Positions 14,746 through 15,002 of a stretch of DNA of 64,000 bases are shown here, piece after piece. The translations under genes and the position numbers were made by a program. The DNA comes from an uncultured Candidatus Saccharibacteria bacterium. GTDB taxonomy: Bacteria > Patescibacteriota > Minisyncoccia > Phycocordibacterales > PCTT01. The notes below the pieces were generated by a model. That model ran no database searches. It had not been told where the DNA came from and saw only the letters and a list, made by a program, of their open reading frames with translations. Numbering within the stretch: position 1 is the first letter of the stretch; each line of letters opens with the position of its first letter. The stretch lies in contig CAZMIM010000002.1 of assembly GCA_964566505.1 (NCBI GenBank), positions 46,529 through 110,528 of the forward strand, written 5' to 3'.

Positions 14746-14876
14746 TGCGCCCCCGCCAGGACGCTTCGCTATCTCACTCCTTGGAAACCCACGGTTTTCC
14801 AACGCTAGCACTGCTCGCTGCCTTCCTCCACGGGGAAACTAGAGTTTCCCCGACCCCCTTCCCGTTCGATTCCTGG
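14746..14876 (-). repeat. tRNA-linked conserved element, copy B (downstream of tRNA-Arg-TCT)
   Basis: In the tRNA sense it starts CCAGGAATCGAAC (the reverse complement of the tRNA's GTTCGATTCCTGG). It ends TCCTGGCGGGGGCGCA, identical to the tRNA gene's last 16 nt. The core aligns with copies A and C. Confidence 0.8.
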
Positions 14877-14928
14877 CTTGAGTATATTTAATTAAAAAAC
14901 ACTCCTTGCTTGGAGTATTTTTTAATCA

Positions 14929-15002
14929 TGCGCCCCCGCCAGGAATCGAACCTAGAATAGGAGCTTAGAAGGCTCCCGTTATATCCATTTAACTACAGGG
15001 GC
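14929..15002 (-). tRNA. tRNA-Arg (anticodon TCT)
   Basis: Acceptor GCCCCTG/CGGGGGC, anticodon arm GGAGC-CTTCTAA-GCTCC, T-arm CTAGG-TTCGATT-CCTGG. Hairpin terminator at 14894-14923. Confidence 0.85.

Follow-up and report, generated by a model that had tools for sequence, protein, structure and literature searches.

A structured element between two copies of a tRNA-Arg end in a saccharibacterial genome, tentatively read as a miniature integrative cassette

What kind of element bears at one end an inverted copy, and at the other a direct copy, of the very gene that it follows? The question is raised by a stretch of 64,000 nucleotides (nt) from an uncultured Candidatus Saccharibacteria bacterium (contig CAZMIM010000002.1, positions 46,529 to 110,528; this whole stretch is the window), in which an element that we call copy B lies between the convergent genes for tRNA-Val(TAC) and tRNA-Arg(TCT). 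Tentatively, we favour the reading that copy B is a protein-less, non-autonomous integrative cassette of ~185 base pairs (bp) at the 3' end of tRNA-Arg(TCT). One part of this reading, that the arms fold into a hairpin copy of the target site, is held with less conviction than the whole. The locus is composed as follows:

14930-15002, minus strand: tRNA-Arg(TCT), intact (ARAGORN; Rfam tRNA, 62.6 bits); nt 53-66 serve as template for the inverted arm, and the final 16 nt make up b(1)
14929-14944, minus strand: proximal direct repeat b(1), TCCTGGCGGGGGCGCA, at the end of tRNA-Arg (sequence)
14894-14923, minus strand: hairpin t1, ACTCC/GGAGT with an A-tract and a T-tract, terminating tRNA-Arg (sequence; terminator-like site)
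14878-14893, minus strand: AT-rich spacer with the -10-like box TATACT at 14881-14886 (sequence)
14864-14877, minus strand: inverted arm Y', GCCAGGAATCGAAC, reverse complement of tRNA-Arg nt 53-66 (repeat search)
14771-14863, minus strand: conserved core (covariance model R1, match 14769-14865, 98.9 bits)
14831-14852, minus strand: core hairpin 1 (sequence/model)
14803-14820, minus strand: core variable hairpin (sequence/model)
14781-14802, minus strand: core hairpin 2 (sequence/model)
14762-14770, minus strand: optional mini-hairpin AGCGAAGCG with a GAA triloop, at the exact junction with the distal repeat (alignment)
14746-14761, minus strand: distal direct repeat b(2), identical to b(1), the 3' arm of the putative cassette
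14708-14745, both strands: bidirectional terminator of tRNA-Val, a perfect 18-bp inverted repeat (inverted-repeat search)
14631-14705, plus strand: tRNA-Val(TAC), convergent with tRNA-Arg (tRNA search)

The preliminary description had noticed that the last 16 nt of tRNA-Arg recur at the far end of the element, and this stands: TCCTGGCGGGGGCGCA occurs exactly twice in 64 kb (14929-14944 and 14746-14761, both on the minus strand) and in none of 100 shuffles. The inverted copy of the T-arm at the element's start is also real and, at 14 nt, slightly longer than the 13 nt first noted; GTTCGATTCCTGGC has one occurrence in tRNA-Arg (14938-14951, minus strand) and one inverted (14864-14877, plus strand), with none in shuffles. 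The hairpin after tRNA-Arg was recovered both in the sequence and as a terminator-like site, and the far end does touch the tRNA-Val terminator, with b(2) directly abutting the 18-bp hairpin. What was not confirmed is a promoter of its own directly before the element: a consensus scan of 14550-15100 finds no sigma-70-type promoter, TATACT being only -10-like. TATNNT boxes resembling it also lie upstream of other copies, and the AT-rich spacer is a plausible candidate promoter of the cassette RNA.

On the strand of the tRNA, copy B runs Y', GGAAGGGGGTC, hairpin 1, GTGGAGGAAGG, variable hairpin, hairpin 2, GGA-GTGAGAT, AGCGAAGCG and b, the segment from GGAAGGGGGTC to GTGAGAT being the core. Most copies of the family have the mini-hairpin and some do not. 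The 3' arm b extends from tRNA nt 60 to the discriminator plus CA, and thus comprises T-loop nt 60, the 3' strand of the T-stem and the 3' strand of the acceptor stem. The heptamer GTGAGAT, which precedes the distal repeat, is a degenerate copy of T-loop nt 53-59 (GTTCGAT), and a perfect GTTCGAT takes its place in L030 and L040 (loci outside the window are given by L numbers). Together, the two arms form one longer imperfect hairpin that replicates the target duplex with a tandem G.A mismatch, their inner ends being offset by 7 nt.

The core is not peculiar to this site. Several tRNA-linked copies had been claimed for the window, and a covariance model of the core recovers exactly three, the next-best match reaching 18 bits. 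Besides copy B these are:

8925-9058, minus strand: copy A, after tRNA-His (9112-9184), with His-specific arms (model match 8962-9049, 90.0 bits)
21634-21751, plus strand: copy C, after tRNA-Ser(TGA) (21496-21581), with Ser-specific arms (model match 21645-21727, 65.1 bits)

Our analysis of this family (family 1) covered the three window copies, 40 genome loci, which are the return of one pattern scan over species-representative genomes, and two metagenome loci. Members score 48-104 bits in the core model, against at most 18 bits for all else. The core hairpins covary: compensatory substitutions occur in 7 of 18 pairs and 94.7% of cells pair, a level that 0 of 500 shuffles attained. Moreover, the sense-strand hairpins are stabler than the antisense ones in 36 cases, the reverse holding in 2. 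Family 1 is a real, structured family, and across the 43 copies analysed it is essentially limited to Patescibacteria, from which nearly all loci come (Saccharibacteria, Paceibacteria, Kaiser-, Wolfe-, Berkel-, Nomura- and Vogelbacteria).

Several simpler identities were tried for it and rejected. Rfam 15, at the gathering threshold and at E<=10, has no family that matches the element, giving only tRNA, transfer-messenger RNA (tmRNA) and 16S. Viral contigs and phage and plasmid collections gave 0 matches, on which ground a phage or plasmid origin was rejected, and literature searches by sequence and by topic found the element in none of the searchable papers. A coding region fails on indels between copies that are not multiples of three and on the absence of a shared open reading frame (ORF). 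A CsrA sponge, with several GGA motifs, fails on csrA lying near just 1 of 47 loci. The 3' tail can pair with the G-rich part of the 5' core in copy C only, which was taken as coincidence, and a palindrome about the core is contradicted by the flanks of copy B, left and right, which are not complementary outside the arms. Ten class-2 copies have no arms and stand free with a 5' hairpin and a terminator of their own; their neighbours (sortase, CARDB, UvrA, SDR) are inconsistent, ruling out a conserved protein neighbour.

Because a diverged copy exists at L059:5960-6110 (minus strand, after tRNA-Pro, 50.9 bits, direct repeat of 27 nt), family 1 must reach beyond the search pattern; in this copy the loop of hairpin 1 is GGGA, and GUAGCGGAAAU stands in place of GUGGAGGAAGG. 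Two further observations concern single copies. L037:1-1910 holds one within an rRNA operon, 12 nt after the tRNA-Ile(GAT) downstream of 16S and with no intervening terminator. L004:4955-5000 and L037:1853-1900, from genomes of different classes, have in common a motif ACCACTTCGCT…CGCGGTGCAAGCAC after the distal repeat.

How closely do the arms follow the neighbouring gene? The proposal that the end sequences are specific to each locus, and not a fixed repeat, extends from the three window copies to ~30 more, spanning 15 tRNA species, tmRNA and protein genes. In the arm-bearing copies, one arm invariably repeats the adjacent gene end in inverted orientation and the other repeats it directly. 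About 30 copies lie on the same strand as a tRNA, 20-65 nt downstream of it, and one follows tmRNA. By anticodon, the tRNA species are His, Arg (TCT, CCT, CCG, GCG), Ser (two), Gly (two), Leu (two), Met, Ile (two), Pro and Phe.

The inner boundaries of the arms are fixed at nt 53 and 60, an offset of 7-8 nt. Every tRNA-linked copy has an inverted 5' arm of 11-21 nt that ends at the complement of G53. The 3' arm begins at nt 60, and for ~20 of 24 intact copies its end falls no more than ~3 nt from the annotated 3' end of the tRNA. The minimal 5' arm consists of T-loop and T-stem alone, the sole part conserved among all tRNAs; in window copies A-C the 5' arm measures just 11-14 nt, and in six copies the arms of 18-21 nt allow the full 13-bp acceptor/T-stem helix. 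Direct repeats are 15-23 nt long (23 nt in L030), with longer ones in L059 and in L001, where a repeat of 79 nt runs through the terminator into the inverted arm, making 1.4 tandem units. At L008, the 3' arm matches the local tRNA and the 5' arm does not. Four copies sit instead at the 5' end of an opposite-strand protein gene (murD in L006 and L009, an HMA-domain gene in L034, and L003), with the same offset of 7-8 nt as at tRNAs and with repeats of 32-45 nt. Since the direction in which the neighbour is transcribed is irrelevant, a logic at the level of DNA is the simplest.

The arm design is wider than the core family of copy B, because other cores have the same arms. Among all 90 tRNAs in the fetched loci with enough downstream sequence, we found at least two further, unrelated core families flanked by copies of the tRNA end in both orientations, one inverted and one direct. 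Family 2 follows tRNA-Val, Lys, Asp, Leu and His, has no Rfam match and shows the core pattern …TCGAA|AGACGGAG…GGGGTCG…GTGAC|CGAGTCC…. Family 3, after tRNA-Leu, Gln and His, has a UGUAA-loop hairpin (CUGUAAG, of anticodon-loop-like shape) just ahead of the direct arm. Their loci are:

Family 2: L014:1774-1950; L035:426-575; L030:6651-6880; L033 (minus strand, downstream of tRNA-Asp 5452-5526); L041:1969-2130; L070; L080
Family 3: L013:754-920; L023:3506-3650; L045 (downstream of tRNA-Leu 4760-4843); L032 (downstream of tRNA-Gln 6124-6195); L087; L090; L062; L064

In several copies of families 2 and 3 (L070, L087, L033, L023, L013-Leu), the 5' arm is split by a hairpin exactly between its acceptor and T-stem parts, giving a tRNA-like fold; L062 and L064 are minimal family-3 versions of 57 nt whose fold resembles a small cloverleaf. 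Two loci, L016:1747-1815 and L008 (downstream of tRNA-Lys 436-511), have the inverted arm alone: a 12-nt inverted T-arm copy lies ~50 nt past the tRNA, and both core and direct repeat are missing. This could be an excision footprint or a precursor state. Overall, about one in six tRNA genes in the sampled flanks bears an element of this arm design, and none of these is annotated.

The preliminary description had named a second 16-nt copy existing independently of the core as the observation that would speak against its reading. Such a copy was not found: core-less Arg/Val sites (L022, L042) lack it, as do core-less tRNA-His sites (L041, L043, L045) and ~45 of 56 metagenomic ones. These 56 come from a metagenome scan with one tRNA-His 3' end as query, which is unbiased as to the element, and they divide as follows:

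Family 1: 1 site
Family 2: 2 sites
Family 3: 4 sites
Empty: ~45 sites, the remainder being unclassified or ending too soon past the tRNA

Any such element is thus present at just 7 of 56 sites. Family-level relatives of the window organism have empty His and Arg/Val sites with a single copy of the tRNA end. A search for close relatives gave, as the best RluA homologue, one that is just 64% identical. Two Logan contigs of the window organism itself, L046 and L047, end ~100 nt upstream of rluA, inside tRNA-Val, so that these assembly breaks fall right beside copy B.

The clearest comparison is that of L013 with L087, whose upstream sequence and tRNA-His are nearly identical over ~145 nt. The terminator GAAAAAACCCGCGTTGAGCGGGTTTTTGTGTGGG comes after tRNA-His in L087, and in L013 the homologous terminator comes after the distal repeat. 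The intervening 170 nt of L013, missing from L087, hold a hairpin of their own, a spacer, an inverted arm, a core and one repeat. The difference is a repeat-bounded unit, and therefore it is this unit that is gained or lost, with its own terminator for the tRNA. Together with the mostly empty tRNA-His sites, this makes the unit of own terminator, spacer, inverted arm, core and one repeat probably a mobile insert. L005 adds tandem accretion of the form b-E1-b-E2-b, in which three tRNA-Ile ends are separated by two different small elements. As with integrase-type elements that target tRNAs, then, direct repeats bound the unit and relatives have empty sites. In the metagenome-assembled genome JBBDKB01 (L005:1880-2240, L022:7540-7590), repeats of the TTAGGGTTTAGGG type follow tRNA genes.

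Carried over to copy B, the L013/L087 comparison at tRNA-His suggests that the end of tRNA-Arg was probably rebuilt from the cassette's own copy. The distal 16-mer b(2) is then probably the original tRNA-Arg end, and the present end, together with hairpin 14894-14923, probably cassette-borne. By the same analogy we infer that the bidirectional Val terminator was the native terminator of tRNA-Arg too, and that it now also ends the cassette transcript.

Mechanistically, a unit made of the 16-nt tRNA end, terminator 14894-14923, the AT-rich spacer, the inverted arm and the core would have entered at T-loop nt 59/60 or, equivalently, anywhere inside the 16-nt repeat. The tRNA-Arg gene would now finish with the cassette's copy, while the old tRNA end and the old bidirectional terminator, displaced downstream, would have become the 3' arm and the terminator of the cassette transcript. 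The free form might be a small circle or a single strand carrying promoter, inverted arm, core, tRNA end and terminator. In it the arms would pair into a duplex copy of target nt 53-72, with a two-base mismatch in the 7-nt segment beside the junction, and a recombinase supplied in trans would exchange strands within the common 16-23 nt. Given such a circle or single strand, a single crossover in the common 16-23 nt would yield the observed product. The inverted arm would be needed only where the site must be rebuilt as a duplex in a single-stranded molecule, and the longer 3' arm would be the part that restores the gene. As for the conserved core RNA, it might bring in the enzyme, be a guide or be of use to the host. 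The geometry fits the principle of a folded site, with a ~13-bp duplex, a partly mismatched segment of 7-8 nt and the junction at its border.

The cassette reading faces a series of difficulties. Its recombinase is a postulate throughout, and the circular or single-stranded form a proposal. No integrase, transposase or reverse transcriptase is enriched among 118 neighbouring ORFs of 40 loci, and none occurs in the 30 window proteins scanned; an integrase gene elsewhere in the genome is conceivable. Models with a reverse transcriptase were rejected, no such gene lying near any copy, and a survey of 95 complete genomes reports no group II introns in Patescibacteria (PMC13011429). It is hard to picture one protein for more than 15 target sequences, except one to which only the conserved T-loop box or the fold matters, and how the arms would be re-written for a new target lacks an explanation. 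The key comparison, besides, was made at tRNA-His of other genomes and not at copy B.

Some individual loci also sit badly with it. L013-His and L018-Leu, from one genome, have cores with ~1 difference in 82 nt and unrelated terminators and spacers; therefore, re-templated arms or gene conversion of the core fit this pair better than movement of a whole cassette. The 79-nt repeat of L001 is not predicted by simple integration of one unit. An inverted arm is kept without a core in L016 and L008, and the family-3 element of L087 comes after the native terminator, which differs from the permuted layout proposed here.

Among the alternatives, the one that survives best is a functional small RNA that mimics the top half of the neighbouring tRNA, its arms being selected at the RNA level and its mobility secondary. 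We consider it unlikely, though a serious contender. The paired arms would copy the T-stem (in some copies the acceptor stem as well) and the 3' end is that of the tRNA, so that the RNA could be a substrate of RNase P and RNase Z, be given a CCA end, be bound by a synthetase, or work as a decoy or by pairing with the tRNA. In its favour, the direct arm of most copies goes no further than the tRNA 3' end, with unrelated sequence next to it; the full helix of the six long-armed copies, the tRNA-like shape with its hairpin at the acceptor/T-stem junction in families 2 and 3, the L008 copy in which only the 3' arm fits the local tRNA, and an arm design common to unrelated cores all point the same way, as do the free-standing class-2 copies with hairpin and terminator of their own. 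The short 5' arms in the window, however, leave no acceptor helix, the T-loop bases are paired rather than looped, and neither the Rfam covariance models nor ARAGORN give a tRNA or tmRNA signal. The arms linked to murD and the HMA-domain gene are not derived from a tRNA at all, those of L009 decay as if neutral, and most tRNA-His sites have no such RNA.

An RNA guide for recombination, with the recombinase encoded elsewhere, is improbable in our view. Here the 5' arm would pair with the top strand left of the crossover and the 3' arm with the bottom strand right of it. One arm is indeed antisense and one sense to adjacent target segments at a fixed offset of 7-8 nt, and the offset holds for tRNA 3' ends as well as for 5' ends of opposite-strand protein genes, so that the target would be DNA and not RNA; the highly conserved core, and the -10-like boxes and downstream terminators that suggest transcription, would suit a guide. 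Against this, the arms are complementary to each other over 6-13 nt, which would compete with target binding, and the guide segments are terminal instead of lying in internal loops. A DEDD or other recombinase gene is likewise absent beside the 40 loci and from the scanned window proteins, and the consensus scan leaves the promoter unconfirmed.

Less probable still is a by-product of replication or repair, in which template switching at the strong hairpins of terminator and core would have produced functionless arms, and ectopic gene conversion through T-loop homology would have spread the core. A direct-inverted-direct triplication is the classical footprint of two switches; L020, L023 and L027 contain giant palindromes centred on terminators, the duplication varies in length from 16 to 79 nt, lone inverted arms exist, and homology between copies is confined to the core and the T-loop-derived bases. 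Such an origin is hard to square with inner boundaries that are identical to the nucleotide at dozens of independent loci and in the other families, with a 3' arm often longer than the 5' arm, from which it was therefore not copied, or with the L013/L087 indel, a clean repeat-bounded unit that includes terminator and spacer. Finally, a relic, whether a degenerate duplicated tRNA gene or the joined attachment (att) ends left by loss of a large integrase-bearing island, is largely refuted, for although tyrosine-integrase islands usually leave the tRNA 3' end directly repeated as their scar and L005 has tandem repeats, the 5' arm complements the 3' strand of the tRNA (CCAGG) and does not copy the 5' strand (CTAGG), none of ~30 copies has a large insert between the repeats, the core hairpins covary and are conserved across classes, and no tRNA model matches.

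A more far-reaching proposal, rather doubtful at present, is that of a superfamily of protein-less mobile RNA genes in bacteria of the candidate phyla radiation (CPR), with the target written in nucleic acid and with arms that replicate the target duplex and are re-written on moving, or else that the RNA swaps or backs up the last 16 nt of its tRNA. Such a superfamily would amount to programmable integration by hairpin or guide, distinct from integrases, IS110 and CRISPR-associated transposons.

The setting of copy B is otherwise that of a Patescibacteria-type chromosome, with Mur ligases, Ddl, L19, PilM, EF-Tu, RuvB, DnaN and YidC encoded in the window. Other repeats in the window were seen as well. 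Two tandem repeats of 294 nt (80% identical) and a third partial unit (10331-11043) lie inside ORF 9809-11788 (minus strand), which encodes a dockerin/Ig-like repeat protein, and this surface-protein gene has on either side one of a near-identical pair of 37-nt palindromic, terminator-like sequences (9765-9801 and 11857-11893). A 28-nt palindrome, ATATGTACAGTTAACTGTACAT, at 12575-12602 and 13078-13105, brackets ORF 12635-13051, for which L046 gives a weak Trp-repressor-like match; the palindrome pair could be candidate operators.

The lineage (Patescibacteria/CPR) is regarded as having few transposons. Should the cassettes be mobile, they would constitute an unrecognised class of genome-plasticity element there and would explain duplicated tRNA ends and extra terminators. 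If the choice of target is truly encoded in the two arms, the element would be a very small programmable integration module; if instead the RNA acts on its tRNA, the smallest bacteria known would have a further layer in their tRNA biology. The conserved core offers a handle for finding the partner enzyme, and in either case cultivable Saccharibacteria make the question testable.

How does the element compare with known systems? It resembles several, yet fails a defining feature of each. Group I introns in trans-splicing form have exactly the same order, namely the complement of the 3'-exon start and the 5'-exon end, then the core, then the 3' exon. The core here, however, is ~100 nt, Intron_gpI gives no match even at E<=10, nt 59 forms an A-U and not a G.U pair, and the copies linked to protein genes are on the wrong strand for an RNA target. 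The omega RNA of TnpB/IscB has a 3' guide equal to the flank, but there is no Rfam IS605-orfB or HEARO match and no tnpB or iscB gene nearby. Miniature inverted-repeat transposable elements (MITEs) and other miniature non-autonomous transposons are also small, multicopy, protein-less and structured; the present element differs in having no terminal inverted repeats of its own, its inverted repeat being target-derived, and in a flanking repeat of 15-79 nt that ends at a gene boundary.

With the bridge RNA of IS110 and the seekRNA of IS1111, it would share a noncoding RNA segment for each target strand on either side of the crossover and a choice of target encoded in nucleic acid. The sense/antisense logic of the arms agrees with a guide of the IS110 type; their terminal, self-pairing position does not, nor is there an adjacent DEDD recombinase or a donor-binding loop.

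Folded sites are the next point of contact, in that the single-stranded CTX phage rebuilds a dif-like site and integron attC sites fold. Like attP(+) of CTX-phi and IMEX, which use XerCD, copy B has two inverted target copies ~100 nt apart that make a duplex with a mismatched central segment, and after integration both arms lie at one end while at the other the target is restored. The arms of 11-21 nt and the pair GTGAGAT/ATCGAAC, with its tandem mismatch, have the form of a folded attP. The targets, in contrast, are tRNA ends, tmRNA, murD and an HMA-domain gene in place of dif, no phage genome is attached, and a single-stranded form is here only proposed. An attC site is likewise ~60-140 nt long and owes its identity to its fold, its sequence being variable; its ends pair and its centre varies. 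ATCGAAC and GTGAGAT agree with the attC boxes at 6 of 7 positions, but they sit at the inner end of the stem and outside any integron context: RYYYAAC/GTTRRRY is absent from the hairpin base, there is no IntI, attI or cassette array, and the arms copy the neighbouring gene.

The closest relatives are the integrative elements that target tRNA genes, that is, tyrosine-integrase islands and prophages of the T-loop sublocation class. They have in common with the cassettes a direct repeat from the T-loop to the gene end, an intact tRNA, tandem accretion and presence or absence that differs between close genomes. The cassettes differ in measuring ~185 bp and not kilobases, in having a further, inverted target copy and a conserved, structured core, in a single core family that serves more than 15 targets, 5' ends of protein genes included, and in the lack of a Phage_integrase match in the neighbouring ORFs and window proteins of the scan described above. 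For no known element did we find a description of this layout, in which a folded RNA lies between its target's mirror image and direct copy. The known kind to which it comes nearest is that of miniature integrative elements at tRNA genes.

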